Below, one piece after another: positions 1-40,184 of a DNA stretch of 64,000 bases. Made by a program: the position numbers and the translations under genes. The stretch comes from Candidatus Altiarchaeota archaeon (GTDB taxonomy: Archaea; Altiarchaeota; Altiarchaeia; IMC4; SCGC-AAA252-I15). A model generated the notes under the pieces. That model did no database searches. It was given only the letters and a program-made list of their open reading frames with translations, and was not told where the DNA came from. The stretch's first letter is position 1; each line of letters starts with the position of its first letter. The stretch lies in the NCBI GenBank assembly GCA_043800255.1, contig JAZDNF010000010.1, forward strand, positions 67,478-131,477. The letters are read 5' to 3'.

Positions 1-1
1 G

Positions 2-433
2 GGGTTCATGCTCGGCAGAGGGAAGACAATAACCCTGAAAGGCGACGCTGGAGGTCGAACTGGCATGTCACTGGCAGGCGGCACGCTCAACATAGAAGGA
101 GACGTTGGGATGTATACTGGCCAGCTTATGGACGCCGGCGTAATAAATGTGACAGGAAACGCAGGCAATTACACGGGAGTCGGGATGAGAAACGGGACAA
201 TCAAGATCGGAGGGGACGTTGGGGAAAACACAGGAAAGGGGATGATAGGCGGTCACATTCACATAAAAGGCAACGCCGGCAGAGGCTTGGGAGACAAGAT
301 GAAAGGCGGCGGCATCACAGTCAACGGAGAGATGGCGGACCTAGCAGCCAGCGTAGGGGGGATGAAAGATGAGGGCCCGAAACCAGAAGGAGGTCAAATC
401 TGGAACAAGAGGGTAAAAATATGGGGAAAGTAG
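2..433 (+). CDS. Array member 1, GXGXG beta-helix protein (5' truncated by window edge)
   Basis: Frame open from the window start; GXGXG coils; ends GQIWNKRVKIWGK. Confidence 0.9.
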   Translation, partial: GFMLGRGKTITLKGDAGGRTGMSLAGGTLNIEGDVGMYTGQLMDAGVINVTGNAGNYTGVGMRNGTIKIGGDVGENTGKGMIGGHIHIKGNAGRGLGDKMKGGGITVNGEMADLAASVGGMKDEGPKPEGGQIWNKRVKIWGK

Positions 434-1143
434 ATCAAAAGATTGTGAAGTTGAAATTGGAAGGGCATCAGCTGAGCGAGAAGCTTCCCAAGCTTAAGGA
501 CCCTGTCATCAGGGAGGCTCTCGAATTGTACTCTCAACTGCTCTATGATGTGTACGCTTCCACTCCGACGGTAGAGTATCCGGAATATCTGCGTAGGACG
601 GAAGGCTTTAACATGACGCCGGCGCAGCTGCAGGAGATGCTGGACGTCTGGGAGAAGTCTTCCCAGGATTTTTCCGGGCCAGTCTGGGCCAACGACGCTG
701 TAGGGTGGGCTAAGATGGGAGTGTTTGCGACCGCCTTGATGCAGAACTCAAAACACAATAATTTCGAGTTCGAGCTGAAGAGAGCGCACCTGCAATACTT
801 AGGCTGTTTTCTGACGCAGGGGAAGAGCATCAAAGTCAAAGGCGACCTCGGGCAGTGGACCGGCTGGGGGCTGCAGGGAGGGAGAATAGAGGTAGATGGC
901 AATTTATCCTTCTGCACCGGCCAGAAAATGAAGGCAGGAGAGATCATAGTGAACGGCGACATCTCCAGGATGGGCGCCATAGAAATGGAGGGCGGGCTGA
1001 TACACGTTAAAGGCGACGCTGAAGAGTACCTGGGAAATAAGATGAAAGCAGGCAAGGTGATTGTCGACGGAAAGCTCAAAGGAGTGTCTGAAGATTACAT
1101 CTCCGGAGAAATCTACAACAAAAATGTGAGAGTGAAACCATGA
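421..1143 (+). CDS. Array member 2, GXGXG beta-helix protein (240 aa)
   Basis: MGKVDQKIVKLKLEG leader, GVFATALMQNS, GXGXG coils; 13-nt overlap with member 1. Confidence 0.92.
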   Translation: MGKVDQKIVKLKLEGHQLSEKLPKLKDPVIREALELYSQLLYDVYASTPTVEYPEYLRRTEGFNMTPAQLQEMLDVWEKSSQDFSGPVWANDAVGWAKMGVFATALMQNSKHNNFEFELKRAHLQYLGCFLTQGKSIKVKGDLGQWTGWGLQGGRIEVDGNLSFCTGQKMKAGEIIVNGDISRMGAIEMEGGLIHVKGDAEEYLGNKMKAGKVIVDGKLKGVSEDYISGEIYNKNVRVKP

Positions 1144-2078
1144 CAGGCACAAAGGTCGTTAAATTGAACTTGGAGGGCGGCGGATTGGCTGATCAACTGC
1201 CGAAGCTGGCAGGGTTTAATGATGCCATTATAGCAGATGCTCATAAAGTGTTCGATCAGACTCCGCATTATGCCTCGCCGTCCGCATATTTCAGGGCGCT
1301 TGTCGAAGATACGGGAGGTTTGGACGTGCCGTCCAGCCAGATGCAGAGGGTATTGGATAAGTCGTTGGAAAAATACCGGCATACTGGGGAGTATCTCGGC
1401 AGGGCAGGGTTTCTAATCTCGGCTTTGATTCAGAATTCCAGCGACAAGAGGTTCAGGCTGACGGTAAAGGAGCCGTTGCACGTTCTGGGTTACGGACTGG
1501 GCAGAGGCAAAGAACTAGTTGTTGACGGCAATCTGGGAGATTTCACAGGCTCCTACTTGGATGGAGGCCGGGTCATAGTCAACGGTTCAGTCGCCTCCAT
1601 GGCTGGCGACTGCATGTCCGCCGGAGAGTTGATCGTCAACGGTGATGTGGGAGAAAGGGCAGGCCTGAGCATGAAAGGCGGGAAAATTGGCGTGAAAGGT
1701 AATGCAAGTGATGAACTTGGCGGGTGGATGGAAGGCGGAATAATAACTGTTGATGGAAACGTTGGAACCGATGCAGGAAAATGGATGAAAGGCGGCGAAG
1801 TGCATGTAAACGGCGATGTTGGGGATAATACTGGCACAGGCATGAACGGAGGAACCCTAAAAGTCGTAGGGAACTCAGGAGACGGGACCGGCTGGAGTAT
1901 GAACGGCGGGATTATCCTCATCGGAGGAAATGTCGGGAAGGGCACTGCAGGTTGCGCTAGGGGAGGCACAATCAAAGTCAACGGCAAAATAAAAGAAATA
2001 AGCAAATTACTGTCTGAACGCGGAGAATTCAAAGGGGAAATCTGGGAGGAAGGATTCCAAATCTGGCCGAAAAAATGA
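1140..2078 (+). CDS. Array member 3, GXGXG beta-helix protein (312 aa)
   Basis: MTGTKVVKLNLE leader, GXGXG coils, ATGA overlap. Confidence 0.93.
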   Translation: MTGTKVVKLNLEGGGLADQLPKLAGFNDAIIADAHKVFDQTPHYASPSAYFRALVEDTGGLDVPSSQMQRVLDKSLEKYRHTGEYLGRAGFLISALIQNSSDKRFRLTVKEPLHVLGYGLGRGKELVVDGNLGDFTGSYLDGGRVIVNGSVASMAGDCMSAGELIVNGDVGERAGLSMKGGKIGVKGNASDELGGWMEGGIITVDGNVGTDAGKWMKGGEVHVNGDVGDNTGTGMNGGTLKVVGNSGDGTGWSMNGGIILIGGNVGKGTAGCARGGTIKVNGKIKEISKLLSERGEFKGEIWEEGFQIWPKK

Positions 2079-3070
2079 CAGGCACGAAGGTTGTTAAACT
2101 CAAACTGGAAGACGGCGGCTTGGGAGACAGGCTCCCGAAGCTGGCGGAAGACCCGCTTGTGAAAGAGGCTGCAGAGTTCTACGATAATTGGGAATACAAC
2201 ATGTTGGTGGCGTCAAGACGATTCTATGAGGAAACGCTTGAGAAAGCCAAGCAGTGGAATCTCACATCCTCTCAAGTGCAAAGGCTGGTCGAGGGCCTCG
2301 AAGGAAAACTCACGCCAGGACATGAGGCAGAGTATTCTGAGAAGACCGGCATATTCCTGAGCGCGATAATCCAGGGATCAAGCACCAGCGAATTCGAGTT
2401 CAAGACGAGAAGGCCCTTAACCTACCTGGGATTCCAGCTCAGGGATGGGAAGAAGATCACCGTACACGGCGATGTGGGGGACAACACCGGCAGGTTCATG
2501 GAATCCGGCGAAGTCCGCGTGAAAGGGAATGCCGGGAGCGAGACGGGGAACTTCATGAAAGGCGGCAAGATAATAGTCGAAGGCGATGCGAAGAACATGA
2601 CCGGACACCTGATGGAAGCAGGCGAAATCGATGTCAGAGGCGAAGCCGGAGATCACAGTGGCAGCGAAATGGTGGACGGCACAATACGTGTCGGAAAATC
2701 TGCCGGAAAAAACACGGGCGAGAAGATGAGAGGCGGAAAAATCCATGTCACAGGCGGTGCCGGAGACAGGACAGGCTACGGGATGCAGGACGGGTACATT
2801 GAGGTTGGAAGAGATGCCGGCATGTTCACAGGCGAGTGGATGGCTGGCGGCAAAATCCACGTCAAAGGCAACGTCAAGGAGGAGACAGGTAAGCGCATGA
2901 TAAACGGCGAAATCATCGTCGACGGCGATGCAGGAGCGTCCGCAGCCTCCATGATGACCGGCGGCAAGATAAGCGTCGGCGGAGACATGGCAGATCTAGC
3001 AAGAGACCAGCCATTCAAATACATAGGAGTCGGCCAAATCTGGAACAAAGGAAAAAGGATAGCAGGATGA
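2075..3070 (+). CDS. Array member 4, GXGXG beta-helix protein (331 aa)
   Basis: Leader, GXGXG coils, ATGA overlap. Confidence 0.93.
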   Translation: MTGTKVVKLKLEDGGLGDRLPKLAEDPLVKEAAEFYDNWEYNMLVASRRFYEETLEKAKQWNLTSSQVQRLVEGLEGKLTPGHEAEYSEKTGIFLSAIIQGSSTSEFEFKTRRPLTYLGFQLRDGKKITVHGDVGDNTGRFMESGEVRVKGNAGSETGNFMKGGKIIVEGDAKNMTGHLMEAGEIDVRGEAGDHSGSEMVDGTIRVGKSAGKNTGEKMRGGKIHVTGGAGDRTGYGMQDGYIEVGRDAGMFTGEWMAGGKIHVKGNVKEETGKRMINGEIIVDGDAGASAASMMTGGKISVGGDMADLARDQPFKYIGVGQIWNKGKRIAG

Positions 3071-3810
3071 CAGGCACAAAAGTAGTCAAATTGAAGCTGG
3101 AGGATGCTGGTGGCGGGAATCTGCCAAAATTGAAGGATACAGTGCTTGCTATACTTGAGACCGCTTACAAAAGTTTCGAGCACAAGCCTGAAGACGTCCG
3201 CAGTGACCGTTATGCGTTTGCGTTGGCTTCTCTGGTTGGCGTAGACGCCAACGAGGCGAGGGTCCGGTCCAAGAAGACGTTAATCTCCATGTCCAATGTG
3301 AACTGTGATGAGCGGACAATCCAAGCGTTCATAGACAAATCCCTAATCAGTCATCAGCGTGAGGGAGAGTTTCAGGGCAAGGCAGGTATTTTCTTAAACG
3401 CGCTGATAAGCACCTCTCCAGAGGAAAAGCTCACATTAGATCTCAGAAAGCTGAAGAGGATGAATAACCTTTGCTCATTCATGGAGGATAAGGACGTTAC
3501 GCTGATAGGGGATGTCGGCGACTGGACTGCCTATGCGGCGTGGTCTGGGAAGGTTACAATCAAAGGCAACGCCGGGAACGGAACAGGGTGTGCGCTTATT
3601 GGCGCCACAGTCATAGTGGAAGGGGATGCTGGAGACGATACCGCCCGTAGTGCGGAAGGTGGCGAAATCCACATCAAAGGAGATTGCGGAATGCATACTG
3701 GGGAGTTCATGAAAGGCGGTAAACTACTGGTGAATGGCAAAATAGCGGAACTAAGCGATAAAATCAAAGGCGGCGAAGTCTGGCAGGGAAAGACGAGGAT
3801 ATACCCATGA
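3067..3810 (+). CDS. Array member 5, GXGXG beta-helix protein (247 aa, divergent helical domain)
   Basis: Leader, GIFLNALIS, GXGXG coils, ATGA overlap. Confidence 0.93.
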   Translation: MTGTKVVKLKLEDAGGGNLPKLKDTVLAILETAYKSFEHKPEDVRSDRYAFALASLVGVDANEARVRSKKTLISMSNVNCDERTIQAFIDKSLISHQREGEFQGKAGIFLNALISTSPEEKLTLDLRKLKRMNNLCSFMEDKDVTLIGDVGDWTAYAAWSGKVTIKGNAGNGTGCALIGATVIVEGDAGDDTARSAEGGEIHIKGDCGMHTGEFMKGGKLLVNGKIAELSDKIKGGEVWQGKTRIYP

Positions 3811-4601
3811 CTGGAACCAAGATTGTAAAACTAAAGCTGGAGAACGCTAATGCGCCAGGCAGATTACCCAGCCTCAGGGAGTCCACAGCAGAGAAAGTCC
3901 TCAGCGTGTTTATGGCAACAGAGTACGTCGAACCTGACGAATGCTATCTCAGCTTCCGGGAGCAGACGAAAGATTTGAACGTCACATCCTCCCAGCTTCA
4001 GAAGATCATACGCGCACTAGAGAGAGGACACATAAAAAATACCACGGATTCGCACAAGGCAGGCATGCTGGTGAGCGCATTCATCCAGAATTCGACGGAA
4101 ACCGAGTTTCATATACAGTCTAAAATCCCGCTCGGATGTGTGGGATACAGGCTGCAGGGCGATAAGAAGATCACAATCGAGGGAGATTATGGAGATGCCA
4201 CAGGCTGGGAAATGAAAAGCGGCAGCATCCACGTCAAAGGACATGCTGGAATGCACCCTGGAATTGCCATGGAGGGCGGGACGATAATAGTCGACGGAAA
4301 CGCTGGACTTGGTACCGGCTATGTCATGTCAGGCGGCAAAATACACGTCAAAGGAAATGTGGGGGAGGAAACCGGCTACAAGATGAGCAACGGGACGATA
4401 GAGGTCGACGGCAGCTCACGAGACCAAACCGGGTTCGGCATGCACGGCGGCACCTTGCACATCGGAGGGAACGCAGGAAAGGAGACCGGCAATGACATGG
4501 GAGGCGGCATCATCAAAGTCGATGGAAAAATCAGCGGAATAAGCGGCAGCTACAAGAAGGGAGAAATCTGGGAAGCCGAGGTGAAGGTGAGGCCAAAGTG
4601 A
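3807..4601 (+). CDS. Array member 6, GXGXG beta-helix protein (264 aa)
   Basis: Leader, GXGXG coils, ATGA overlap. Confidence 0.93.
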   Translation: MTGTKIVKLKLENANAPGRLPSLRESTAEKVLSVFMATEYVEPDECYLSFREQTKDLNVTSSQLQKIIRALERGHIKNTTDSHKAGMLVSAFIQNSTETEFHIQSKIPLGCVGYRLQGDKKITIEGDYGDATGWEMKSGSIHVKGHAGMHPGIAMEGGTIIVDGNAGLGTGYVMSGGKIHVKGNVGEETGYKMSNGTIEVDGSSRDQTGFGMHGGTLHIGGNAGKETGNDMGGGIIKVDGKISGISGSYKKGEIWEAEVKVRPK

Positions 4602-5434
4602 CTGGGACAAAGGTCGTCAAACTGAGGCTGGAAGATAGTGGAGGGAAGCTGCCCGCCCTGATAGGCGACAAGGTGGATGAGGCTGCGGTGGGGAAGGCAG
4701 TGGAACTATTCTATGCTGAGGTGCCTGACATCCCGCTCCAAGGGATTGATGTCCAAAAGGATGTCGCATACTATGAGAAGATGGTGGATGCGACAAGAGA
4801 CTTTAATGTGACGACAGAGCAGCTTACTGAAATAGTCAGCAAAATCGAAGACGACCAGCGTCTGAGGCTTAAGACGGCGCATGTCATGGGAATGTATTTC
4901 ACCGCATTGATGAACAATTCAAAGCATCCTTATTTCGAGATAAAAACGCGCGAGAACATGTGGTATCTGGGGATGAGGATGAAGGACGACAAGACCGCAG
5001 TCCTGAAGGGTAAGGGAGGAAGGCATGTTGGATACGAGATGGAACATGGCACCCTAATAGTCGAAGGCAACACAGGGGCTTATACAGGCCAGCACATGAA
5101 AGGCGGGCAGCTAATCCTGAAAGACTACTCTGGAGACGCGTTAGGCGAATGGATGCAAGGCGGCAGCATAATGGCAGAAGCTGACGTTGGAAAATACGCC
5201 GGCAGGCACATGCGAGGAGGGAGCTTAACAGTGAAAGGCAAATCAGACGATTACACCGGCATGCAGATGATCAACGGCATAATCCGCATCGGAAAAGACG
5301 CTGGCAGCTGGACCGGCGACGGGATGAGAGGCGGCAAAATCACAGTAGACGGGAAGATAAGACATCTTGGGTATGACATGACCGGCGGAGAAATATGGCA
5401 GGGGAATGAAAAGGTCTGGCCGAGAGAAAAATGA
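4598..5434 (+). CDS. Array member 7, GXGXG beta-helix protein (278 aa, GTG start)
   Basis: Leader, GXGXG coils, GTGA overlap. Confidence 0.93.
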   Translation: MTGTKVVKLRLEDSGGKLPALIGDKVDEAAVGKAVELFYAEVPDIPLQGIDVQKDVAYYEKMVDATRDFNVTTEQLTEIVSKIEDDQRLRLKTAHVMGMYFTALMNNSKHPYFEIKTRENMWYLGMRMKDDKTAVLKGKGGRHVGYEMEHGTLIVEGNTGAYTGQHMKGGQLILKDYSGDALGEWMQGGSIMAEADVGKYAGRHMRGGSLTVKGKSDDYTGMQMINGIIRIGKDAGSWTGDGMRGGKITVDGKIRHLGYDMTGGEIWQGNEKVWPREK

Positions 5435-6078
5435 CCGGCACAAAAATCGTCAAGTTGAACTTAGAGGGGGGCGGTGCCGACAAGCTCCCCCAATTGAAAG
5501 AGGATATCATCACTAGCAAGGTTTTTGACATCATCGAGAGGACACCGTACAACGTTGTAACTGGGGGGTCCTATTATGAGAGGATTCTCGAAGCCACCAG
5601 AGGATTAACTCCGAAAGAGGATGAGATACAGGAAGTGTTAACTCGCCTGCTGTCAGCGCACAAGGAGGACGGAAGATTCATGCATGACACGTTTATGGTG
5701 ATGAAGGTCGGCTACATGACGAACGCATTGATCCACCACTCCAGACAGAAGAAAATCATGTTAATCCTGCCGGAGCCTGTGAACTGCCTGGGCTACAGGC
5801 TGGAAGAGGGGAAGGAGGTAATACTGGAGGGAAATGCTGGCGGAAACATCGGCTGCGAGATGAAAGGCGCCAAACTAACGGTTAACGGTAACGTGCGGGG
5901 GAACCTTGGGACGGAGATGACTCAGGGCGAAATCACAGTGAACGGGAGCGTTGGGGGGACTGTCGGCGAGGACATGGAAGGAGGGAAGATAACAGTCAAC
6001 GGAGAAATCAAAAAACTGAGCGACAGGATAAAGGGTGGCGAAGTCTGGCAAAAAAACAACAGAGTGTGGCCAACATGA
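5431..6078 (+). CDS. Array member 8, GXGXG beta-helix protein (215 aa)
   Basis: Leader, GXGXG coils, ATGA overlap. Confidence 0.93.
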   Translation: MTGTKIVKLNLEGGGADKLPQLKEDIITSKVFDIIERTPYNVVTGGSYYERILEATRGLTPKEDEIQEVLTRLLSAHKEDGRFMHDTFMVMKVGYMTNALIHHSRQKKIMLILPEPVNCLGYRLEEGKEVILEGNAGGNIGCEMKGAKLTVNGNVRGNLGTEMTQGEITVNGSVGGTVGEDMEGGKITVNGEIKKLSDRIKGGEVWQKNNRVWPT

Positions 6079-6884
6079 CGGGGACAAAGGTAGTGAAACT
6101 AAAGTTGGAAGGCGGTGGCGGTCTGGCAGAGAGGCTGCCTGAGTTGCGTGATACTCTGGTAGAAAAGGCGATGATAGCGTATGGGGGATTAGCATACGAT
6201 CGGAATTACCAGCTCTTCTATCCCCCTCTGCTGGAAAGTCTCAGAGATTTTGATGTGATGCCAAAGGAGTTGCAGGCCATATCAGACAGACTCCGTGAAG
6301 TTTATTCAGGGCAGAATGGGTTCTCTGAAATTGCGGGGATGTTCCTCACAGCATTGGTGCAGAACTCAAACACGAGCGAATTCAAGCTAAAATTAAAGTC
6401 GCCGTTGAATCTGATTGGAATCGGATTATCCAAGGGGAAGGACCTGACAGTGGAAGGGGACGTTGGAGAGCTTCTCGGAGCATTCATGGAGGGCGCGAAA
6501 ATCCACGTCACCGGAAAAGCAGGAGACCTGGTAGGGCGGTCCATGGAGAAAGGCACCATCAAAGTGGACGGCGACGCCGGCAACCAGGCTGGCCTGCACA
6601 TGGAAAACGGGACGATCGAGATTGGAGGCAACACAGGGTATGCGCTGGGAGACGGGATGCGAGCAGGATCCATCACAGTCGGAGGCAACACCGGGAATGA
6701 GCTGGGGTTGGCCATGCAGTGGGGTTACATCAAAGTCGAAGGAGATGCAGGAGATATGATAGGAGAATTCATGGAGGGCGGCACGATCGAGATTAACGGA
6801 AAAATGGGCAAGATACACAGCGAGTATAAGGACGGTGTGATAATCCACCAGGGCAGGCAGGTAAGGCCTAAGAAAAAAACATGA
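6075..6884 (+). CDS. Array member 9, GXGXG beta-helix protein (269 aa)
   Basis: Start moved from 6066 to the MTGTK ATG overlapping the upstream TGA. Confidence 0.92.
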   Translation: MTGTKVVKLKLEGGGGLAERLPELRDTLVEKAMIAYGGLAYDRNYQLFYPPLLESLRDFDVMPKELQAISDRLREVYSGQNGFSEIAGMFLTALVQNSNTSEFKLKLKSPLNLIGIGLSKGKDLTVEGDVGELLGAFMEGAKIHVTGKAGDLVGRSMEKGTIKVDGDAGNQAGLHMENGTIEIGGNTGYALGDGMRAGSITVGGNTGNELGLAMQWGYIKVEGDAGDMIGEFMEGGTIEINGKMGKIHSEYKDGVIIHQGRQVRPKKKT

Positions 6885-7555
6885 CTGGGACGAAAGTCGT
6901 TAAGTTGAGGCTGGAGGACAGCGGGACTGGCGGATTACCCAACCTTAAAGAGGGGGTCGTCGGCAGGGCAGTTAAACTATACGAGGACAGCACCTGTGAT
7001 GTTGTCAACGACTACTATGCTATGATGGCAGAGGCGACGAGGGACTTTGATGTGAGACCGGCCGAACTCCAGAGGATAATCGATATTATCGAGAAAAAAT
7101 CGGAAGGGGATTTTGACGACAATAAGAAAGGGGCTTTCCTGACGGTCTTAATGCAGAACTCCAGAAGCCAGGCTTTTAGAATCAAGATAAAATCCCCGGT
7201 ATCCTGTCTAGGCGTCAATCTGAAGGGTGATAAGAAGATTACTGTCGTAGGCGATCTGCTGGATGAGACGGGAGCGTGCATGGAAGGCGGGGAAATACAT
7301 GTGAAAGGGAATGTAAAAGACTATACTGGGTCATCGATGACTGGGGGGAAAATAACCGTCGACGGGAACGCGGAGGATCTTACTGGGACTGCCATGGCTG
7401 GCGGAATCATAACCGTGAAGGGGAATGTCGGGGAAAACACCAGCCTGCACATGACAGGAGGCAAACTAGAGGTTGGAGGAGAAATAGCCGGCATATCAGG
7501 CAGAGTACATGGCGGGGAAATCTATAACAAAGGCGAGCGGGTGTGGCCGAGATGA
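6881..7555 (+). CDS. Array member 10, GXGXG beta-helix protein (224 aa)
   Basis: Leader, GXGXG coils, ATGA overlap. Confidence 0.93.
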   Translation: MTGTKVVKLRLEDSGTGGLPNLKEGVVGRAVKLYEDSTCDVVNDYYAMMAEATRDFDVRPAELQRIIDIIEKKSEGDFDDNKKGAFLTVLMQNSRSQAFRIKIKSPVSCLGVNLKGDKKITVVGDLLDETGACMEGGEIHVKGNVKDYTGSSMTGGKITVDGNAEDLTGTAMAGGIITVKGNVGENTSLHMTGGKLEVGGEIAGISGRVHGGEIYNKGERVWPR

Positions 7556-17594: not shown

Positions 17595-17599
17595 GAAGA

Positions 17600-23127: not shown

Positions 23128-23134
23128 AAATAAT

Positions 23135-32183: not shown

Positions 32184-33040
32184 CAGGGACAAAAGTCATC
32201 AAACTCAGGTTGGACGAGGGTGGAACCCCTGAAAAGCTCCCGGAGCTCAAGCAGGATGTGGTGGGCGCAGTGCTCAAGTTCATGGAAGACACAGCGTACA
32301 GGTTCAGCTTCGGCGACCAGCCTGACGAATACTACGACAAGGCCCTGGATGCGACGAGAGGGTTGAACGCAACCTCAGACCAGGTCCAACAGCTGCTGGA
32401 GACGCTGGAACACAAGATCGAGGAAGAAGAGGCAAGCGTACCCCCCGAAGGCAAACCTATCAACGTGCCGGCCGGGTGCTACCTGAAATACAAGATGGGC
32501 TCAGGCCCAGTATTAAGCGCGCTAATGAACAACTCATCTCATGAAAAATTCGAACTCGCCACCAGGCTGCCAATAAGCAATCTAGGATACAAGCTCAGCG
32601 GAGGCAGGAAAATCACCGTCAACGGCGACTTAGGCAGCCACACAGGGGCGAAGATGTCAGACGGGATTATCAAAGTCAACGGGAAAGTCGAGAGTTGCAC
32701 GGGAGCCGGCATGTCCGGCGGCACAATACACATCACGAAAGGCGCGGGAGACTCTGCTGGTTTGGGAATGATAGACGGCACGATCAAGGTTGATGGCAGC
32801 GTCAGAAACGAGACAGGCCTTGCAATGAAAGGCGGAAAAATCATCATCGGAAGGAATGCAGGGGAAAAAACCGGCGATAATATGGCAGGCGGTGAGATAA
32901 CCGTGAGAGGAAACACTGGAAAGGACACAGGATGGCGGATGTATGACGGAACAATAGACGTTTACGGGAAAATCCAACTAAGCAAGAGCGTCTTCGGGGG
33001 CGAAGTACGGCACAAAGGAAAAAAGGTTGCTCCAAAATGA
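32180..33040 (+). CDS. Array member 43, GXGXG beta-helix protein (286 aa)
   Basis: Leader, GXGXG coils, ATGA overlap. Confidence 0.93.
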   Translation: MTGTKVIKLRLDEGGTPEKLPELKQDVVGAVLKFMEDTAYRFSFGDQPDEYYDKALDATRGLNATSDQVQQLLETLEHKIEEEEASVPPEGKPINVPAGCYLKYKMGSGPVLSALMNNSSHEKFELATRLPISNLGYKLSGGRKITVNGDLGSHTGAKMSDGIIKVNGKVESCTGAGMSGGTIHITKGAGDSAGLGMIDGTIKVDGSVRNETGLAMKGGKIIIGRNAGEKTGDNMAGGEITVRGNTGKDTGWRMYDGTIDVYGKIQLSKSVFGGEVRHKGKKVAPK

Positions 33041-33960
33041 CCGGCACGAAAATCGTCAAGCTGAAACTGGAAGGGGACGGGGGAACTGAGAAGCTGCCGA
33101 AGCTGATGGATTATGCCAAAGACAGGCAGGTGATGGTCGCCCTTGAAGCCTATCGGAGGGTTAAGAAGTCAGGTGCGACTGAGGATGTTTACGCCAAAGT
33201 TCTGGAGAACGTAAAGGATTTGGATGTGACGCCCCGGAAGCTCCAGATAATACTGACGGAATTAGAGAAGGAATTCGCAGACGAAGAAGATCTTGTATAT
33301 GGCGGGAAGGCGGGGCTGCTGCTTTCGGCTCTGATACAAAGCTCAAAACATAAGACGTTCCACCTCAGCCCGCTAAAACGTTTGGACAATTTGGGCTTCA
33401 AGCTGCCGGAGGGGAAGAAACTCATACTGGACGATGCAGAGTATTGGAATCTGGGGCATGCCATGATGGGCGGCAAGGTTGTTGTCAGGGGGAACGGAGG
33501 AGACTATCTTGGGCTGGGGATGAAAGCAGGCGAGATACTCGTTGAAGGGGGAACTAATTCCGGAGCAGGCTATCACATGCACGGCGGCACAATAACCGTC
33601 GAAGGGGATTCGGGAATCCAGACCGGGTACCTAATGCAGGGAGGGACTTTGAAGGTCAGGGGGAGCGCAGGACTGGAATTGGGCGCCAGAATGATGGGCG
33701 GCAGGATCGAGGTCGGAGGGGACGCAAAAGACAACGTTGGAGTTGACATGGAGGCAGGCGAAATCGAAGTCAAAGGAAACGCAGGACACTGGACAGGGCA
33801 CGAGATGAAAGGCGGGACCATCACTATAGGAAAAAACGTCGGAGAAGGCACCGGAAGGCATGCGAGAAATGGGGAAATCAGGGTCGGCGGAAAAATCGGA
33901 GGGATAAGCAAAGATCACGGGGCGACGAAGATATACGAGGGCGGAGAACAGGTAAGATGA
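33037..33960 (+). CDS. Array member 44, GXGXG beta-helix protein (307 aa)
   Basis: Leader, GXGXG coils, ATGA overlap. Confidence 0.93.
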   Translation: MTGTKIVKLKLEGDGGTEKLPKLMDYAKDRQVMVALEAYRRVKKSGATEDVYAKVLENVKDLDVTPRKLQIILTELEKEFADEEDLVYGGKAGLLLSALIQSSKHKTFHLSPLKRLDNLGFKLPEGKKLILDDAEYWNLGHAMMGGKVVVRGNGGDYLGLGMKAGEILVEGGTNSGAGYHMHGGTITVEGDSGIQTGYLMQGGTLKVRGSAGLELGARMMGGRIEVGGDAKDNVGVDMEAGEIEVKGNAGHWTGHEMKGGTITIGKNVGEGTGRHARNGEIRVGGKIGGISKDHGATKIYEGGEQVR

Positions 33961-34799
33961 CCGGTACGAAAATCATCAAGCTGAAACTTGAGGAGGGCAG
34001 GGCCTCGGAGACGCTTCCCCAGCTGATGGGGGATGACCTCATGGCTGCCGTTAAAATCTTCAAAAGGATAGAGTACGGCGGCAACATGCACGACTACTAT
34101 GACGAAGCTCTGAAGGCCACTAAAAAAATGAATATTGTCCCCGCGGCGATGATGGAACTGCCGAACCTGCTCAAACAGGAACATTCCAGCGAAGAAAATT
34201 ATGGAGTGACGGCCGGATTATATATGACGGCGCTGATGCAGAATTCTCCCTATAGCATGTTCACGGTCCCGAACATGCCTGAAGTGGATGGCCTCGGATT
34301 CAAGCTCAAAGGAGACAAGAGGATTATCGCATTAGGGTATGTTGGGAAATCACTGGGAAGCCACATGGAGGGAGGATCCATCCACGTGATGCAAAGCGCC
34401 ACCGACGATGTCGGATTGGGCATGAGAGGCGGGGAAATACGTATAGACGGGAACGCAGGGCACAGGATCGGCAGCCGCATGGAAAAGGGGAAAATAACCG
34501 TGATAGGATACGGATGCGACAAAGTCGCGGATGGCATGAAAGGCGGGAAAATAGAGATTGGCGGCAGCGTCGGCAGAGGATTAGGCTCGCACATGGAAGG
34601 CGGCGAAATCCATGTGAAAGGGGATGTGGGGATGAAGCTCGCATTCTTCATGAGAGGCGGGAAAATCACAGTAGACGGCGATATCGTCTCAGTCTCAGGA
34701 ACCACAGTCATCGCAGGCGGCAAGTCGTTTCTGCGGATGGAGGATGAGATATTCGGCGGAGAAATCTGGAACAAGGGGGAGAGGATATTCCCAAAATGA
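33957..34799 (+). CDS. Array member 45, GXGXG beta-helix protein (280 aa)
   Basis: Leader, GXGXG coils, ATGA overlap. Confidence 0.93.
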   Translation: MTGTKIIKLKLEEGRASETLPQLMGDDLMAAVKIFKRIEYGGNMHDYYDEALKATKKMNIVPAAMMELPNLLKQEHSSEENYGVTAGLYMTALMQNSPYSMFTVPNMPEVDGLGFKLKGDKRIIALGYVGKSLGSHMEGGSIHVMQSATDDVGLGMRGGEIRIDGNAGHRIGSRMEKGKITVIGYGCDKVADGMKGGKIEIGGSVGRGLGSHMEGGEIHVKGDVGMKLAFFMRGGKITVDGDIVSVSGTTVIAGGKSFLRMEDEIFGGEIWNKGERIFPK

Positions 34800-35416
34800 C
34801 AGGCACAAAAGTCGTAAAGTTGAATCTGGAGAACGGCGGATTCCAGGAGGGGCTTCCCAGCCTGAAGAAGAATGCTGTGGTGGAGGCTGTCGCCATCTTC
34901 ATGCAGGCAGAATACAGTGGAGCTGACACCTATTATGATAAGGTACTTGCAGAGACTGCTGGACTTGACATGAAACCCCAAGAGATTCAGGAAACGCTCG
35001 AGATGCTCGAGAAAGGTTACGGCCATGAAGAACACTTCCCGGTGAGGGCTGGGTCCCTGCTGACTGCGCTGATGCAGAACTCATCCCAACAGGAATTCAG
35101 CATCAAGCCGAAAACTCCGCTGGATTTCCTGGGATATCGACTGCATGACGGGAAGAAGATTACTGTGGAGGGGGACGTTGGAGGTTACCTCGGGCGTGAG
35201 ATGAGAAATGGAACCATACACGTGAACGGCAACTCCGGAAACCACACTGCCGCCGGAATGGGAGGCGGCACCATAGAGGTGGATGGGGATGCTGGAGAAT
35301 ATACTGCAAGCATAATGCACGGAGGGGTGTTGAAAGTCAACGGGAAGATACGGAAGCTGGCGGACACGTTCCTCAACGGGGAAATATGGGAAAGCGGGAA
35401 GAGGTTGCCCTTATAA
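34796..35416 (+). CDS. Array member 46, GXGXG beta-helix protein (206 aa)
   Basis: Leader, GXGXG coils, ATGA overlap. Confidence 0.93.
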   Translation: MTGTKVVKLNLENGGFQEGLPSLKKNAVVEAVAIFMQAEYSGADTYYDKVLAETAGLDMKPQEIQETLEMLEKGYGHEEHFPVRAGSLLTALMQNSSQQEFSIKPKTPLDFLGYRLHDGKKITVEGDVGGYLGREMRNGTIHVNGNSGNHTAAGMGGGTIEVDGDAGEYTASIMHGGVLKVNGKIRKLADTFLNGEIWESGKRLPL

Positions 35417-35417
35417 T

Positions 35418-36215
35418 ATGACAGGGACTAGAATCGTGAAACTGAAGCTGGAGGAAGACGGCAGCCCGGAAAAACTCCCCCAGCTGATGGGAGATAAAAC
35501 CGATGAGATAGTGCGCGTGTACCGTGAGACGGGCTTTGATAGCTTCCATTATATAAATTACTACAATGAAATGCTGAGGAGGACGGCGAAGTATAATCTG
35601 ACACCAAAACAGCTTCAGAATGTTGTGACCGTGCTAGAGCTAGAACGCTCCCGCAGCCTTGACAAGTACCAGCCAAGCGCAGGCCTTTTCATAACAGCTC
35701 TGATACAAAACTCCGGGCACGACAGATTCGAATTCAGAGTCCGAGAGCGGCTGTCCCGTCTGGGCCACAGGCTGGCGAGCGGAAAAGAGATAATAGTCGA
35801 CGGTGACGTGGAAAATTTCACAGGCGAAAGTCTCCAGGGCGGCAGCATCACGGTAGACGGGAGCGCACGCGAGTGCACCGGAAGTTCGATGAGGAAAGGG
35901 AAAATACTCGTCAAGCACAGCTGTGAGAACTACACCGGCTCTGGCATGAGCGGCGGGAGCATAACGGTCGAAGGCAGGGCTGGGGATGAGACAGGGCACG
36001 AGATGAAAGGCGGGACGATACGGGTAGACTACCATGTAGGCGACAAGACCGGGCAGCGGATGAGCGGCGGCCTCATAGACGTTGGAATGACAGCCGGACA
36101 CGATACTGGAGAGAAAGCGTTTGGGGGCATAATAAAAGTCGGAGGCGAAATCAAAGGCATCAGTCCCCGCTTCCACGGGGATGAGCTCTGGGAAAACGGC
36201 GAAAAGATAAGATGA
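35418..36215 (+). CDS. Array member 47, GXGXG beta-helix protein (265 aa)
   Basis: MTGTRIVKLKLE leader; 1-nt gap upstream. Confidence 0.93.
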   Translation: MTGTRIVKLKLEEDGSPEKLPQLMGDKTDEIVRVYRETGFDSFHYINYYNEMLRRTAKYNLTPKQLQNVVTVLELERSRSLDKYQPSAGLFITALIQNSGHDRFEFRVRERLSRLGHRLASGKEIIVDGDVENFTGESLQGGSITVDGSARECTGSSMRKGKILVKHSCENYTGSGMSGGSITVEGRAGDETGHEMKGGTIRVDYHVGDKTGQRMSGGLIDVGMTAGHDTGEKAFGGIIKVGGEIKGISPRFHGDELWENGEKIR

Positions 36216-36241
36216 CCAAACATACGGTGTGGCCTAGATGA
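36212..36241 (+). pseudogene. Collapsed array unit / 9-aa bridging mini-ORF MTKHTVWPR*
   Basis: ATG ACC AAA CAT ACG GTG TGG CCT AGA TGA; ATGA overlap with member 47 at its start and with member 48 at its end; begins MT and ends VWPR like full units. Confidence 0.7.
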
Positions 36242-37149
36242 CGGGGACAAAGGTTATCAAGTTGAAATTGGATGGGGACGGCGCAGCTGGCAAGCTGCCG
36301 AGGCTGAGAGGCAGTGTGGTGGATGAGGCCCTCGTCGTATTCGACACCACCGAGTTCAATGTTGTGGATGAGTACCGGGATGCTCTGCTTGGGAAGACGA
36401 AGGAGTTGAACGCGGATCAAAAGCAGCTTCAGGAGATTGTCAAACGGTTGGAAGGACGGGAAGATGTTGCGAGGTACGGGACAAAAGCCGGAATCCTGCT
36501 GACCTGTCTGATAGAGAACTCAAGCGAAAGGGAATTCGAATTCAGGATACAACGGCAGATTGACCATGTGGGGTACAGGCTAGCTTCTGACAGAAAGATG
36601 ACCGTTAAGGGGAACGTCGGAGACTTCACTGGGATGGAGATGAAAAAGGGCGAAGTCAACATAAACGGGAACACGACGGACCATGCTGGCATGGGGATGG
36701 AAGGCGGCACCATCAACATAAGAGGAGACGCCAGAGACCATACTGGCGGATTGATGAAAGGCGGGACCATAAACGTAGACGGCGATGCCGGAGCCGACAC
36801 TGGTCAGGGCATGACTGGGGGCACGGTGAACGTAAAAGGGGGCTCAGACGCTCGCACAGGCTATGAGATGGAAGGCGGGCTGATAACTGTCGGCAAGGAT
36901 GCTGGCGAATCCACTGGCAGGCAGATGGAAGGCGGGAGGATAACCGTCGGCGGAAACACTGGAATACTCACAGGCCACAGCATGCGCAAGGGAGAAATCG
37001 ATGTGAAAGGGACAGTCGGGCATGAGGCTGGCGAGCAAATGTCCGGCGGCACCATCAAAGCCGGCATGAAGGTGCTGAGCATCAGCGAAAAATATGAGTG
37101 GGGCGAAATCTGGCAGAGCGGAGAACGACTGAGGCCGATAGAAAGATGA
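36238..37149 (+). CDS. Array member 48, GXGXG beta-helix protein (303 aa)
   Basis: Leader, GXGXG coils. Confidence 0.93.
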   Translation: MTGTKVIKLKLDGDGAAGKLPRLRGSVVDEALVVFDTTEFNVVDEYRDALLGKTKELNADQKQLQEIVKRLEGREDVARYGTKAGILLTCLIENSSEREFEFRIQRQIDHVGYRLASDRKMTVKGNVGDFTGMEMKKGEVNINGNTTDHAGMGMEGGTINIRGDARDHTGGLMKGGTINVDGDAGADTGQGMTGGTVNVKGGSDARTGYEMEGGLITVGKDAGESTGRQMEGGRITVGGNTGILTGHSMRKGEIDVKGTVGHEAGEQMSGGTIKAGMKVLSISEKYEWGEIWQSGERLRPIER

Positions 37150-38075
37150 CAGGGATGAAGGTTATAAAACTGAAGCTGGAGGGAGACGGGAGTGAGACGC
37201 TCCCCAGTCTGAAGGGGGATCCTGTGGAGGCGGCAATCAGAACATTCGAGGAGATAACCTACGTTGATCCGCTGGTTGAGGAAGCCTATGAGAAGATGCT
37301 CAAGTCGACAAGCAGGATAAACGCGGACTCAAGGCAACTGCAGACTATAGTCGAAATATTGGAGGAACGGTACTGTTCTACGGTGTCCCGCCCAGCAGCC
37401 GATGATGAACGGACAAAAGCAGGATTGTACGTGACCGCTCTGGCGCAGAACTCTAAGACAGACAAATTCAACATAACGTCGAACAAGAAGCTGAACTATG
37501 TGGGCTTCAAGCTGAAGGAGGGGAAGGAGATAACCGTGGAAGGCGATGTCTGGGTTGGCGCGGGGCAATGGTTGGACGGCGGGAAACTGACGATAAACGG
37601 TTCCGCAGGCTACCATCTGGGGCACAATATGGCAGGCGGGAGCATACACGTCACCAAAGACGCTGGAGAAGGCGCAGGCTGGGAGATGACCGGAGGAGGA
37701 ATCAACATAGGCGGCAACGCTGGGAACCGGACCGGGTGGGAGATGGCGGGCGGGAACATACGGGTTGACGGCAGCGTAGGAGACGAGACCGGCAGGAACA
37801 TGGTCGGCGGCGAAATACTAGTGGAAAAGGATGCGGGAAACATGACCGGGAAAGGCATGAGCGGCGGAATGCTGACTGTCATCGGAAACGCCGGCGACAA
37901 GACCGGCCTCCAGATGGAACGAGGAGAACTCCGAATCGGGGGGAAATCTGGGAAAGAAACAGGGGAAGAGATGTGGGGCGGCAGGATAACCGTTCTGGGA
38001 GAGATCGAAGGGATAGCTGAGAAAAAACACAGCGGCGAAATATGGCAGAAAGGAACTAAGGTGTGGCCAGAATGA
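37146..38075 (+). CDS. Array member 49, GXGXG beta-helix protein (309 aa)
   Basis: Start moved from 37098 to the MTGMK ATG (ATGA overlap). Confidence 0.92.
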   Translation: MTGMKVIKLKLEGDGSETLPSLKGDPVEAAIRTFEEITYVDPLVEEAYEKMLKSTSRINADSRQLQTIVEILEERYCSTVSRPAADDERTKAGLYVTALAQNSKTDKFNITSNKKLNYVGFKLKEGKEITVEGDVWVGAGQWLDGGKLTINGSAGYHLGHNMAGGSIHVTKDAGEGAGWEMTGGGINIGGNAGNRTGWEMAGGNIRVDGSVGDETGRNMVGGEILVEKDAGNMTGKGMSGGMLTVIGNAGDKTGLQMERGELRIGGKSGKETGEEMWGGRITVLGEIEGIAEKKHSGEIWQKGTKVWPE

Positions 38076-38764
38076 CAGGAACCAAGGTCGTGAAACTGAA
38101 ACTGGAGGACGACGGGCGAGAGAAGCTCCCCCCGCTGAAGGAGGATTCGATAGTGGCTCATGTGGTTGAAGTCTACGGGCAAAGAGAGTACCGTGGTCGT
38201 TTCACAGAAATCGCAGAATACTACGATAATTTGTTGGAGGATATCGAAGGGTTGGATGTCAGGCCCCGGCAACTTCAGCGGATATACGACACGCTGGAGG
38301 AAACATATCCTAAGGAGCCGAAACATGTGAACAAGTTGGGCATATTCCTGACCGCATTAATCCAGAAGTCAACATCTGAGGAATTCGAGCTGAAGGTGAG
38401 GAAGCCGCTCGGACATCTGGGCTACCTCCTGAAAGGTGGCAAGAAGATTACGGTGAGCGGGAATCTTGGGGAAGCCGCAGGCCACTGCATGAAAGACGGG
38501 AAATTGATTGTGAAGGGGAACACGGGGGATACGACCGGGTGGGGGCTTGAAGGCGGAGAGATTATCCTAGAGGGGAACGCTGGAAAGAACACGGCGCATG
38601 GGATGAAAGGCGGAACACTCCACATAAGGGGAAACAGTGGCATATGGACTGCGACTGCGATGGAGGGCGGAATCCTGAAGGTGGACGGAAAAATAAAAGA
38701 GATAAGCGACGACTACCGAAGCGGGGAAATCTGGGAAGGCAACGTAAGGAGGAGGCCAAAGTGA
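38072..38764 (+). CDS. Array member 50, GXGXG beta-helix protein (230 aa)
   Basis: Start moved from 38063; close paralog of member 51. Confidence 0.92.
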   Translation: MTGTKVVKLKLEDDGREKLPPLKEDSIVAHVVEVYGQREYRGRFTEIAEYYDNLLEDIEGLDVRPRQLQRIYDTLEETYPKEPKHVNKLGIFLTALIQKSTSEEFELKVRKPLGHLGYLLKGGKKITVSGNLGEAAGHCMKDGKLIVKGNTGDTTGWGLEGGEIILEGNAGKNTAHGMKGGTLHIRGNSGIWTATAMEGGILKVDGKIKEISDDYRSGEIWEGNVRRRPK

Positions 38765-39453
38765 CGGGAACCAAGGTCGTGAAACTGAAGCTGGAGGATG
38801 AGGGTTTAGGCAAAAAACTTCCGAATCTGAAAGCAGATCCAGTAGTAGACCATGCGGTTGAAGTCTACGGACAAAGAGAATATCGTGATAACTACATGGA
38901 AATCATAGATTACCATCAGAAAGTTTTAGAGGATGCACGGGGATGGGATGTCACTTCCACCCAACTCCAAGAGATCTGTGGCAGAATAGACGACGGATAC
39001 TCCAACGAGCTGAAACATGATACGAAGTTGGGGATATTCTTGAGCGCCTTGATGAATGAGTCTAACCACAAGGAATTCAAGCTGAAAGTAAGAACGCCCC
39101 TCAGCCATCTGGGTTACCTGGCAAGTGACAAGGATATCACAGTCACGGGTGACTTGGGGGAGGCCGCAGGCCACTGCATGAAAGACGGGAAATTGATTGT
39201 TAAGGGGAACACAAGAGATATGGCCGGTTTGGGGCTTGAAGGCGGGGAGATCATCGTGGAAGGGAATGCCGGGACTAACACAGCACGTCTGATGGAAGGC
39301 GGAACCCTCCACATAAAGGGGAACAGCGGCATATTGACAGCCCTTTCGATGACCGGCGGAATCCTGAGAGTGGAGGGGAAAATAAAAGAAATGAGCGATG
39401 ACATCAGAGGCGGCGAGATTTGGCAGGGCAACAAGAAGGTGTGGCCGAGATGA
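38761..39453 (+). CDS. Array member 51, GXGXG beta-helix protein (230 aa, GTG start)
   Basis: Start moved from 38644 to GTG-TGTK (GTGA overlap), AAGGAGGAGG upstream. Confidence 0.91.
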   Translation: MTGTKVVKLKLEDEGLGKKLPNLKADPVVDHAVEVYGQREYRDNYMEIIDYHQKVLEDARGWDVTSTQLQEICGRIDDGYSNELKHDTKLGIFLSALMNESNHKEFKLKVRTPLSHLGYLASDKDITVTGDLGEAAGHCMKDGKLIVKGNTRDMAGLGLEGGEIIVEGNAGTNTARLMEGGTLHIKGNSGILTALSMTGGILRVEGKIKEMSDDIRGGEIWQGNKKVWPR

Positions 39454-40184
39454 GTGGCACTAAAGTCGTGAAACTGAGGCTGGAGGATGGGGGCGGTGAG
39501 AAGCTGCCGATGTTGAAGGGTGATGTGGTCGAGCGGGCTCTGGAATTGTATGATGCGATCGAATCCCATCATACTGTCACAGCCGAGGCTGAGGATTATG
39601 CGAACATTCTAAAACAGAGCAAAGGTTTCGACCTGAGTTCAGGCCAACTCCAGCTGGTGCTTGACAGGATAGCGGATGGGCCTGCAGGAATAATCAAGAA
39701 TAATCTGGGGCTCTTCCTGACGGCATTAATCCAGGGTTCCAAACATTCGGACTTCAAAATAAAAACGAAAATTCCCCTCAGGAACTTCGGATTCAAGCTG
39801 AAGGACAAGCGGATAACCGTTGAGGGGAATCTAGAGGACTGGACTGGAAACCAGATGGAAAGCGGGCGGATAATGGTGAACGGGAACGTAGGCTCCGATA
39901 CCGGGCATAAGATGCGCGGAGGCGAAATCATCATAGACGGTAACGCAGCATACCGGACAGGATTCAGGATGAAAGGCGGGAAAACGCATGTCAAAGGTTC
40001 CGTGTTGGGGGCGTTAGGAGCTTACATGGAAGACGGCCTAGTAGAGGTGGACGGAAACGGCGGGGAGAATGTCGGCCTCGCGATGAACGGCGGCATAATA
40101 AAAGTCAAGGGGGACATAACAAGCTTCGGAGACTTCTATACGGGCGGAGAGATTTGGGAAAAAGGAGTGAAAAAGAAGGGGTGA
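39450..40184 (+). CDS. Array member 52 (last), GXGXG beta-helix protein (244 aa)
   Basis: Start moved from 39420 to the MSGTK ATG (ATGA overlap). Confidence 0.92.
   Translation: MSGTKVVKLRLEDGGGEKLPMLKGDVVERALELYDAIESHHTVTAEAEDYANILKQSKGFDLSSGQLQLVLDRIADGPAGIIKNNLGLFLTALIQGSKHSDFKIKTKIPLRNFGFKLKDKRITVEGNLEDWTGNQMESGRIMVNGNVGSDTGHKMRGGEIIIDGNAAYRTGFRMKGGKTHVKGSVLGALGAYMEDGLVEVDGNGGENVGLAMNGGIIKVKGDITSFGDFYTGGEIWEKGVKKKG

Follow-up and report, generated by a model that had tools for sequence, protein, structure and literature searches.

Ninety-seven tagged beta-helix genes in tandem in an Altiarchaeota genome and their possible link to a MoxR-like ATPase/VWA module

What are the proteins encoded by the long run of paralogous genes that fills positions 1 to 40184 of a stretch of DNA from a Candidatus Altiarchaeota archaeon (GenBank assembly GCA_043800255.1, contig JAZDNF010000010.1), and why would a genome keep so many of them? 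The stretch, called the window below, is 64,000 nucleotides (nt) long and corresponds to positions 67478-131477 of contig C15 in our numbering of the source genome (G000; 1,747,814 bp, 17 contigs, 93% completeness). An earlier note on the same DNA had recognized the run as at least 52 diverged GXGXG beta-helix genes and had proposed a repertoire of recognition proteins shaped by birth and death, missing the N-terminal tag of the proteins, an AAA+ ATPase/von Willebrand factor A (VWA) gene pair inside the array, and the recurrence of such arrays in DPANN archaea. We found that the array is real, intact, and ancient and comprises 97 genes; that its products, combining the tag with a helix bundle and a beta-helix like that of formylmethanofuran dehydrogenase subunit C (FwdC), have a new architecture; and that genes for an AAA_5-type ATPase and a VWA-type protein repeatedly lie beside those of the family and co-occur with them. 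Judging from these sequence data, the array may supply, in hyperexpanded form, the third component of a MoxR-VWA module, with the common tag serving for its recruitment, a reading to which we assign a probability of roughly 0.5.

The window contains 52 consecutive open reading frames (ORFs) on the + strand, 51 complete and one cut by the left edge, which confirms the earlier count, and the run does continue beyond that edge, as had been claimed: the whole array extends from C15:26884 to C15:107661, spanning 80,778 bp (80.8 kb) or 4.62% of the genome, with blocks of 25 and 72 genes on either side of a 4.8-kb gap. No foreign gene lies among the 52 window ORFs, all of which have the N-terminus, the helical region, and GXGXG coils in common. 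The array proteins are 153 to 447 amino acids (aa) long (median, 256), with 90 ATG and 7 GTG start codons. Neighboring genes overlap by 4 nt at 76 of the 96 junctions (69 ATGA and 7 GTGA; 41 of these overlaps fall inside the window), so that translational coupling is possible and the products of long gene runs could be synthesized jointly; a Shine-Dalgarno-like GGTG/AGGT motif was present for 67 of the 97 genes, inside the K-V-W-P codons of the preceding gene. The earlier statement that no copy is frameshifted or truncated was right in that all 97 reading frames are open and intact, but the C-terminal cap is unrecognizable in about 8 of the 97 genes (in the window, 8424-9149, 14842-15402, 16854-17594, and 18460-19068), and one gene outside the window encodes the N-terminal domain (N-domain) only. 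The figure of about 8 was taken from reading the listed tails by eye, a strict regular expression for the cap having matched only 68 of 97.

Each array protein consists of the near-invariant tag, a four-helix bundle, a beta-helix of FwdC/GltB type and variable length, and the C-terminal cap. The tag, of about 22 residues, reads MTGTKVVKLKLE, followed by a Gly-rich stretch and LP.L; the ORF starts fit MTGTK(V/I)(V/I)KLKLE in all 52 window members, and the consensus for the array as a whole runs MTGTKVVKLKLEggG.aekLPkLK, about 95 helical residues with AG.FLTALiQNS, the coils, and GGEIw.kG.kV.Pk. All 51 complete window genes match our N-domain profile, A1, with expect values (E) of 1e-23 to 7e-42. 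A coil has 19 residues (G-x-x-M-x-G-G-x-I-x-V-x-G-N-A-G-D-x-T), most conserved at positions 1, 4, 7, 9, 11, and 13 and variable at positions 2, 3, 5, 8, 10, 12, 17, and 18 (3.2 to 4.0 bits). There are about 1 to 17 coils per protein, with a mode of 6, as estimated from protein length, since counts by regular expression (1 to 11) are too low. On PF01493 (GXGXG; gathering cutoff, 32.5 bits), three array members scored 48.4, 57.7, and 40.6 bits and a short one scored 27.4; in a scan of the genome, 97 of 99 PF01493 matches fell in C15:27-108 kb, many passing the cutoff alone or with same-frame neighboring stretches.

An AlphaFold2 model of one window member (gene 38072..38764; 137-row alignment) reached a predicted local distance difference test score (pLDDT) of 93.7 and a predicted template modeling score (pTM) of 0.87. 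It places a free tag at residues 1 to 20 (pLDDT, 53 to 62), four helices at residues 22 to 99, and the beta-helix at residues 104 to 228; in this monomer model the beta-helix is capped at both ends, by the helix bundle on one side and by a C-terminal hairpin on the other. Foldseek, run against the PDB, aligned the beta-helix alone, with 5t5i_C and 8rja_C (FwdC), 6s6y_C (FhcC), and 1ofd_A (GltB) as top matches, in agreement with the fold that the earlier note had named; to FwdC/FhcC, the probability was 1.00 over 125 to 150 alignment columns at 25 to 30% identity. A Protein Atlas search with the N-domain returned no named family, every score being below 0.8. One array gene, at C15:52545-53888 (447 aa), is a natural two-unit fusion in which the second unit has neither a tag nor a stop/start junction; its AlphaFold2 model (pTM, 0.61) has a linker with a pLDDT below 50 and no inter-unit geometry. 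The array proteins are probably cytoplasmic and nonenzymatic: no transmembrane or signal-like segments were found, a Kyte-Doolittle mean of 1.6 was reached by 1 of 97 proteins, and the N-terminal 25 residues are hydrophilic. The idea that they are secreted or surface proteins was rejected on account of the lack of hydrophobic N-termini among the 97, and the idea that they mimic DNA was rejected given a median isoelectric point of 6.1.

For all their likeness in fold, the array proteins are not additional FwdC or GltB subunits, because the only FwdA in the genome (C8:73170-74756, 618.5 bits) has its own FwdC, there is only one glutamate synthase operon, and no array match reaches the cutoff of the FwdC profile in a single stretch. 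This profile, TIGR03122, is an NCBIfam equivalog with a curated cutoff of 130.65 bits, and the genuine FwdC, which adjoins FwdA (C8:72539-73177), is the sole protein to pass it in a single stretch (208 bits, profile positions 1 to 212). No single match of the array exceeds 125.7 bits, and among the 24 array matches listed the alignment begins at profile positions 15 to 73, in most cases 58 to 73. A few long members pass only by the sum of two or three stretches; the 218.8 bits of window gene 26290..27372, for example, are reached only as the sum of three stretches within profile positions 73 to 204. None of the array genes or their neighbors encodes FwdA, and no FmdE was detected in the genome. 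The strongest PF01493 protein (124 bits) is encoded on contig C9, inside a split glutamate synthase operon with amidotransferase (GATase), Glu_synthase, ferredoxin, and pyridine-nucleotide oxidoreductase genes, neighbors that this protein alone has and array members lack. One FwdA, with an FwdC of its own, and one glutamate synthase operon thus stand against 97 array genes, and numbers of partners do not match. The earlier remark that catalytic partners are missing holds for those of FwdA and GltB type; it does not hold for partners in general, since 17 kb to the left of the window the array is broken by the AAA+/VWA pair.

The copies are old duplicates that have been kept intact under purifying selection. 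Pairwise identity of the N-domains has a median of 34% (5th to 95th percentile, 27 to 42%), with only 10 pairs above 55%, so the clear mutual divergence noted earlier stands; identity is flat with distance along the array, and the nearest relative lies within two genes for only 8%. For the 10 closest pairs, Nei-Gojobori ratios of nonsynonymous to synonymous substitution (dN/dS) were 0.13 to 0.31, at a dS of 0.57 to 2.3. In the first 25 codons, which encode the tag, the ratios in the same pairs were 0.05 to 0.14 in spite of a dS of 0.7 to 1.5, meaning that constraint on the protein, rather than gene conversion, maintains the tag. This gene-wide test gives no support to a diversifying repertoire. 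At the DNA level, copies are 60 to 84% identical by family, without long near-identical repeats (one 49-nt stretch is at 96%), and with copies so deeply diverged, collapse or misjoining in the assembly is unlikely. A search of sequencing runs listed one DNA run, a groundwater metagenome (X1; share, 0.05), and no RNA run; 35 short contigs from it match 20 of 30 bins of the stretch at 90 to 99% identity, none spanning the stretch, but the run may be the source sample and so gives no independent support, and two "skip" joints had sides of 25 to 28 nt.

The 4.8-kb gap in the array (C15:46002-50824) contains two divergently transcribed genes, encoding the AAA+ ATPase and the VWA protein. The latter (738 aa) has an N-terminal HEAGHH (HExxH) motif, a long charged linker, and a VWA domain at residues 530 to 676 (PF00092, 31.3 bits against a cutoff of 23.8), with matches to integrin I-domains and a visible DGSGSM motif. 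The ATPase (850 aa; L003:8272-10824) has a P-loop core followed by a C-terminal rhodanese domain. Its core is nearest to AAA_5/CbbQ/NorQ clusters, with a features score of 0.96, AAA_5 in all ten best matches, and a structural template modeling score by row of up to 0.84 to clusters named "putative ATPase (NorQ)." The rhodanese domain (residues 739 to 847, E of 7e-13 to 6mxv_A) is absent from the homologs in two related genomes, G004 and G018.

Is this pair a chance neighbor? In DPANN archaea, relatives of the array proteins (P0102-P0166, in loci L019-L068) have the helical domain, the coils, and the cap in common with the array and match profile A1 over positions 25 to 117 (E of 5e-12 to 4e-4), while the tag is a different one, RFG.YKPE.E..VR; the motifs AG.FL(S/T)AL(I/M).NS and G.I(Y/W)(H/E)KG occur in both families, the DPANN cap reading G.IYHKG.LI. 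At loci L029, L045, and L066, family genes are interspersed with genes for an AAA_5 ATPase and a VWA-like protein, and when the nonfamily neighbors of the DPANN loci were clustered, the ATPase was found in loci of 4 of 14 labeled genomes and the VWA-like protein (about 600 aa) in loci of 5. These ATPases pass the AAA_5 cutoff (28.9 to 34.4 bits); of three VWA-like proteins tested, one gave VWA_2 at 20.1 bits, below the cutoff of 27. In four genomes with an expanded family (G062-G065), the ATPase gene is single copy and, in all three with usable context, lies at most about 2 kb from family genes. Of 61 evenly sampled Micrarchaeota genomes, 5 yielded the ATPase, 5 yielded the family, and 4 yielded both (one-sided Fisher test, p = 4.7e-5), these genomes being related and hence not independent; in the fifth ATPase-bearing genome, a separate hmmsearch detected a family gene (168.8 bits) directly downstream of the ATPase. 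In two genomes, G077 and G078, the genes for the ATPase, the VWA-like protein, and the beta-helix protein form a compact operon, with a member of a second tagged family next to it. That family, multicopy and about 300 aa long, occurs at the same DPANN loci and shares its N-terminal motif, RFG.Y.P..VR, with the beta-helix relatives but bears an unrelated domain with no Pfam match.

The distribution of the family was assessed at several depths. With one array member as the query, a word-indexed search of 5.8 billion protein clusters returned 8 full-length matches, all from that member's own contig, and 15 others restricted to the coils. An exhaustive N-domain profile search of 1.84 billion representatives gave 165 matches at E <= 0.001; the best 85 of these align from the start of the profile and comprise 84 array-type proteins, whose sources were not checked individually, and the copy on contig C10 described below, while the remaining matches start at profile positions of about 12 to 45 onward and so lack the tag. 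Within the phylum, 2 of 61 species genomes match the profile, namely, the source genome and, with a weak TPR-fused protein, G003. Metagenome scans with the patterns MTGTKVVK and MTGTKIVK yielded 28 and 19 stretches and no relatives, records near the source genome possibly being omitted from them. As to the origin of the source genome itself, all named best matches of its Orc1/Cdc6 homologs are from Altiarchaeota, at 51 to 60% identity. A scan of one genome per species found 78 loci, some of them coil-only FwdC-like matches, mainly in Micrarchaeota and Iainarchaeota, with others in Aenigmatarchaeota, Nanoarchaeota, Woesearchaeota, one Hydrothermarchaeota genome, and a few bacteria. Same-strand tandem runs reach 11 genes at L023, 8 at L033, 7 at L034, and 5 or 6 at L019, L020, and L022, and the four expanded DPANN genomes (1.0 to 1.4 Mb) give 34, 56, 68, and 34 matches, which are not gene counts, since some genes give two. 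Fusions of 2 to 5 units also occur (P0102, P0106, P0107, P0130, and P0135). The tagged array was thus found only in the source genome, but related arrays recur in DPANN, so that the system is not unique to this genome, though largest there. A FastTree phylogeny over 94 helical-domain columns, with every row retained, grouped all of the array genes (97) together with the copies from C10 and G003 and 4 of the 43 outsiders in one clade (support, 0.76); with poorly resolved inner nodes, it demonstrates neither a single origin nor a donor. In the literature searched for GXGXG or FwdC together with DPANN, Micrarchaeota, Iainarchaeota, Altiarchaeota, or Hydrothermarchaeota, there was no relevant account of the family or its arrays, in line with the earlier view of them as a candidate undescribed system.

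The tag behaves as a module. A regular expression for it has 99 sites in the genome, 97 in the genes of the array and 2 in a pair of neighboring genes on contig C10; a tag-only hidden Markov model (HMM) scores this pair at 42.8 and 37.2 bits, nothing else exceeding 6.3 bits. One of the two encodes a divergent 219-aa family member; the other encodes a 416-aa helical protein without Pfam match, coils, or GXGXG domain. This locus may be ancestral. Its neighbors are a weakly FapA-like beta-solenoid (193 aa), a 583-aa HEAT-like protein, and a 771-aa protein with repeated segments resembling sigma-70 region 4. The tag was not found on the core ATPase and VWA proteins: with the tag HMM, the ATPase N-termini of G000, G004, and G018 gave nothing above background. 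To the eye, these N-termini (KTTV..V.., then LPP[LI]) resemble the tag, a resemblance that we do not rely on.

How might these parts work together? The paralogs could serve as scaffolds or binding modules of beta-solenoid type, each with its own length and its own residues at the outward-facing positions of the coils. The common tag would be the handle by which a VWA adaptor with its AAA+ motor, or else a common hub, recruits them, and the ATPase/VWA machine would then assemble, remodel, or process the recruited proteins. On this model, the paralogs are clients or adaptors of the machine, and their differing lengths and surfaces would be the point of the expansion. Such a module is compact and single copy in some Micrarchaeota and is accompanied by tandem arrays, with tens of matches per genome, in other DPANN archaea; in the source genome, the ATPase/VWA pair is located within the array.

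Several observations weigh against a MoxR-VWA module with the array as its third component. The HExxH motif of the VWA protein was assigned by eye alone, no peptidase profile having matched; the ATPase scores 21.8 bits on Pfam AAA_5, with a cutoff of 22, and was not listed by a genome-wide AAA_5 scan at E <= 0.001. Related genomes and incomplete metagenome-assembled genomes underlie the co-occurrence counts, and BLASTP between the ATPase/VWA proteins of the source genome and those of DPANN aligns only the Walker A stretch, a class-level likeness. A homologous ATPase/VWA pair (41% and 37% identity) is encoded in the related genomes G004 and G018, neither of which has an N-domain profile match, and since the pair occurs there without the family, it is older than the array and separable from it. 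In G018 (L102, G018:C29, 40-1517 and 6529-7242), three helical-repeat paralogs, each with ..PPLKKL at its end, flank the pair; C-terminal motifs of this type were not found in the source genome. The units of the two-unit fusion have no fixed packing, with nothing to support a rigid heteropolymer. A complex prediction for the full 738-aa VWA protein against the N-domain alignment scored 0.00 in a run without controls and counts neither way. In its most ambitious form, the proposal is that of a previously unrecognized system of small-genome archaea (Altiarchaeota and several DPANN phyla), made up of a MoxR-like ATPase, a VWA adaptor, and tagged beta-solenoids, in which the third part has been multiplied in some lineages into a germline repertoire (tens of matches per genome, and 97 genes in the source genome), every paralog presenting its own beta-helix surface, that recognizes many targets (host, symbiont, or virus proteins) for a single remodeling or proteolytic machine; in this full form, we consider it quite unlikely.

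Among the alternatives, a role in conflict or defense survives best, although we judge it unlikely. The 97 paralogs would then be a germline repertoire of recognition surfaces, sensors or decoys for invader proteins, feeding into a MoxR-VWA pair that has a peptidase-like effector on its VWA protein. The embedding of the pair in the array would suit this, as would the concentration of variability at outward-facing coil positions and in coil number, but variable outward positions are expected of any beta-solenoid. The presence of the tag on unrelated proteins fits the coupling logic of the MoxR-vWA ternary conflict systems, which, as described in PMC7159879, share small adaptor domains and diversify their sensors; the words GXGXG, solenoid, FwdC, and Altiarchaeota do not appear in that article. 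With a dN/dS of 0.13 to 0.31 and a dS of at least 0.57 in the 10 closest pairs, there is no sign of recent birth and death or of gene-wide positive selection, PADLOC gave 0 matches for 7 proteins, and no mobile-element or other defense genes were identified beside the array, its flanks being occupied by genes that look like those of secreted proteases and adhesins. The birth-and-death recognition repertoire proposed in the earlier note was therefore not borne out.

A structural polymer, in which paralogs joined head to tail or on a hub would build something like a cytoskeleton or matrix of mixed subunits and the AAA+/VWA pair would be only an assembly chaperone, seems distinctly unlikely. Beta-solenoids often polymerize, translational coupling of long gene runs would provide co-production, fusions of 2 to 5 units occur naturally in other genomes and one lies in the array, and the free, strand-like tag of the model could add to a neighboring subunit; however, the beta-helix is capped at both ends in the monomer model, the fusion has a low-confidence linker and no defined packing, and 97 different subunits are not obviously needed. 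Very improbable is an assembly artifact or a neutral or selfish amplification without function. It is true that the genome is metagenome assembled, in 17 contigs, and that the tagged form was found in no other assembly (no relatives in the two metagenome scans, and 2 of 61 phylum genomes matching the profile), but the divergence of the copies, the 97 open frames, the purifying selection, strong on the tag, the contigs of the groundwater run (possibly the source sample), and the recurrence of sister-family arrays in independent DPANN assemblies all speak against it. Weakest of all, and almost certainly wrong, is ordinary metabolism with extra FwdC or GltB beta-helix subunits, since the coil matches to PF01493 and TIGR03122, the Foldseek matches, and the name "formylmethanofuran dehydrogenase subunit C" given by a source to two of the relatives are outweighed by late-starting TIGR03122 matches with no single stretch at the cutoff, by the partner counts and the missing FmdE, and by a four-helix bundle and a tag that are foreign to both FwdC and GltB.

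Some features of the locus remain to be described (Table 1). Six of the nine array gaps longer than 20 nt contain a T-run and a TATATA motif, which we read as a possible terminator/promoter unit; the TATATAA box ends about 8 to 11 nt ahead of the ATG, nearer than the usual archaeal TATA-to-start distance. The GC skew is strongly positive (0.17 to 0.29) across window positions 1 to 40000 and near zero in the next six 2-kb bins (40001 to 52000), and base composition is uniform along the window array; we would attribute the skew to a coding strand rich in Gly, Asp, and Glu codons rather than to a replication signal. Directly after the array, five large genes (window 40236-55998, +) look like a set of secreted proteases and adhesins, and with the M6 peptidase gene upstream and the subtilase genes downstream, extracellular protease genes lie on both flanks of the array. 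Further on, a 415-aa ORF with weak RHS-repeat matches (E of 2e-5) is located at 61671-62918 on the - strand, near several small ORFs without family match.

Table 1. Features of the array, its flanks, and related loci (plain numbers are window positions; other locations carry their contig or locus name)
Feature	Location	Strand	Remarks
Array gene 46 of 97, 3' part	1..433	+	Start left of the window at C15:67113; GXGXG coils, then cap ...GGQIWNKRVKIWGK
Array genes 47-97 of 97 (51 complete)	421..40184	+	Tag, four-helix bundle, beta-helix, cap; mostly 4-nt overlaps
Short variant, 186 aa	14842..15402	+	About 3 coils, no canonical cap; PF01493 27.4 bits, below cutoff
Intergenic gap	16814..16853	.	T-run, then TATATA box ending about 10 nt before ATG
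Intergenic gap	18398..18459	.	T-run and TATATAA motif
Longest window member, 360 aa	26290..27372	+	About 12 coils; PF01493 57.7 bits
Modeled array gene, 230 aa	38072..38764	+	AlphaFold2 model
Further motif-bearing gaps	C15 27817-27865, 40932-40994, 53889-53959, 65778-65821		T-run, CTGTCTGTACTG-like stretch, TATATAA box
Gene directly upstream of the array, 1155 aa	C15:23271-26738	+	Secreted-looking; M6 peptidase, CBM96, and lamin-tail domains
Post-array gene 1, 814 aa		+	S8 subtilase with CUB, PA, and inhibitor-I9 domains
Post-array gene 2, 1195 aa		+	FG-GAP and CUB repeats
Post-array gene 3, 315 aa		+	No family match
Post-array gene 4, 1109 aa		+	S8 subtilase with lamin-tail domain
Post-array gene 5, 1781 aa		+	Only a weak fn3-like match
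Second tag locus	L013:9052-16415 (C10)	-	219-aa and 416-aa proteins both start MTTKIVKLNLEGGGSD.LP.L
Second tagged DPANN family, examples	L041:7290-8207, L036:7475-8563, L023:195-1094		
Zincin-VWA and ATPase pair in relatives	L101 (G004:C32) 6952-11694		

If these readings are right, about 4 to 5% of an archaeal genome is devoted to one uncharacterized protein family, whose relatives give 34 to 68 matches in each of four DPANN genomes of 1.0 to 1.4 Mb and which is widespread in lineages with a cell biology and host interactions that are almost unknown. Because annotation pipelines wrongly name some members formylmethanofuran dehydrogenase subunit C, metabolic reconstructions of Altiarchaeota and DPANN archaea can be distorted. 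If real, the connection with a putative MoxR-class ATPase and a VWA protein would offer a testable handle (tag-dependent binding, ATP-dependent remodeling, and possibly cleavage of the tag), and the array would add an example from prokaryotes in which paralogs have expanded in tandem to an extreme degree, with translational coupling.

Compared with known systems, the array proteins have the right-handed GXGXG beta-helix of FwdC/FhcC (TIGR03122; 5t5i_C, 8rja_C, and 6s6y_C), both being noncatalytic scaffold folds, but they lack the first part of the FwdC profile, carry the tag and a four-helix bundle in addition, have variable numbers of coils, and are encoded in 97 copies, rather than 1, that do not adjoin FwdA/B/D. 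With the C-terminal beta-helix of GltB (PF01493; 1ofd_A and 1ea0_A) and its stand-alone archaeal version, they share the Pfam domain and the fold, whereas the C9 version scores 124 bits and has GATase and Glu_synthase neighbors and array members score 19 to 57 bits without such neighbors. CbbQ/CbbO is a MoxR-class AAA+/VWA pair, and in pairs of the NorQ-NorD and CbbQ-CbbO type the VWA protein is the adaptor that brings the client to the motor. As in these pairs, an ATPase nearest to AAA_5/NorQ clusters lies beside a VWA protein with a DxSxS-type metal-site motif in the array. NorQ/NorD is likewise described as a MoxR-class AAA+/VWA pair in the abstract of PMC9976466. In contrast to both, the client in the array would be a family of up to 97 paralogs and not one enzyme, the ATPase has a C-terminal rhodanese domain, and the VWA protein has an N-terminal HExxH motif.

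The MoxR-vWA ternary conflict systems (Kaur et al. 2020, PMC7159879) have small adaptor domains common to core and effector proteins, occur in up to 22 copies per genome, and diversify their sensors. Like the array, with its putative MoxR-class ATPase, they combine a MoxR and vWA core with a conserved third gene, many paralogs per genome, and a small N-terminal module on several different proteins in the locus and elsewhere. The third component of the array, in contrast, is not VMAP, iSTAND, or FtsH, no such Pfam matches having been seen; its shared module is a short linear tag with a helix bundle, not found on the core proteins; and its hosts are small-genome archaea. The terms GXGXG, solenoid, and FwdC are absent from the article, though its supplementary neighborhood tables could contain related loci. 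Closest is the RFG.YKPE family of DPANN archaea: while it carries another tag, its arrays are smaller and scattered over several contigs, and its ATPase and VWA proteins are only class-level relatives, it has, like the array, the helical domain, coils, and cap, same-strand tandem arrays, and a link to an AAA_5 ATPase and a VWA-like protein.

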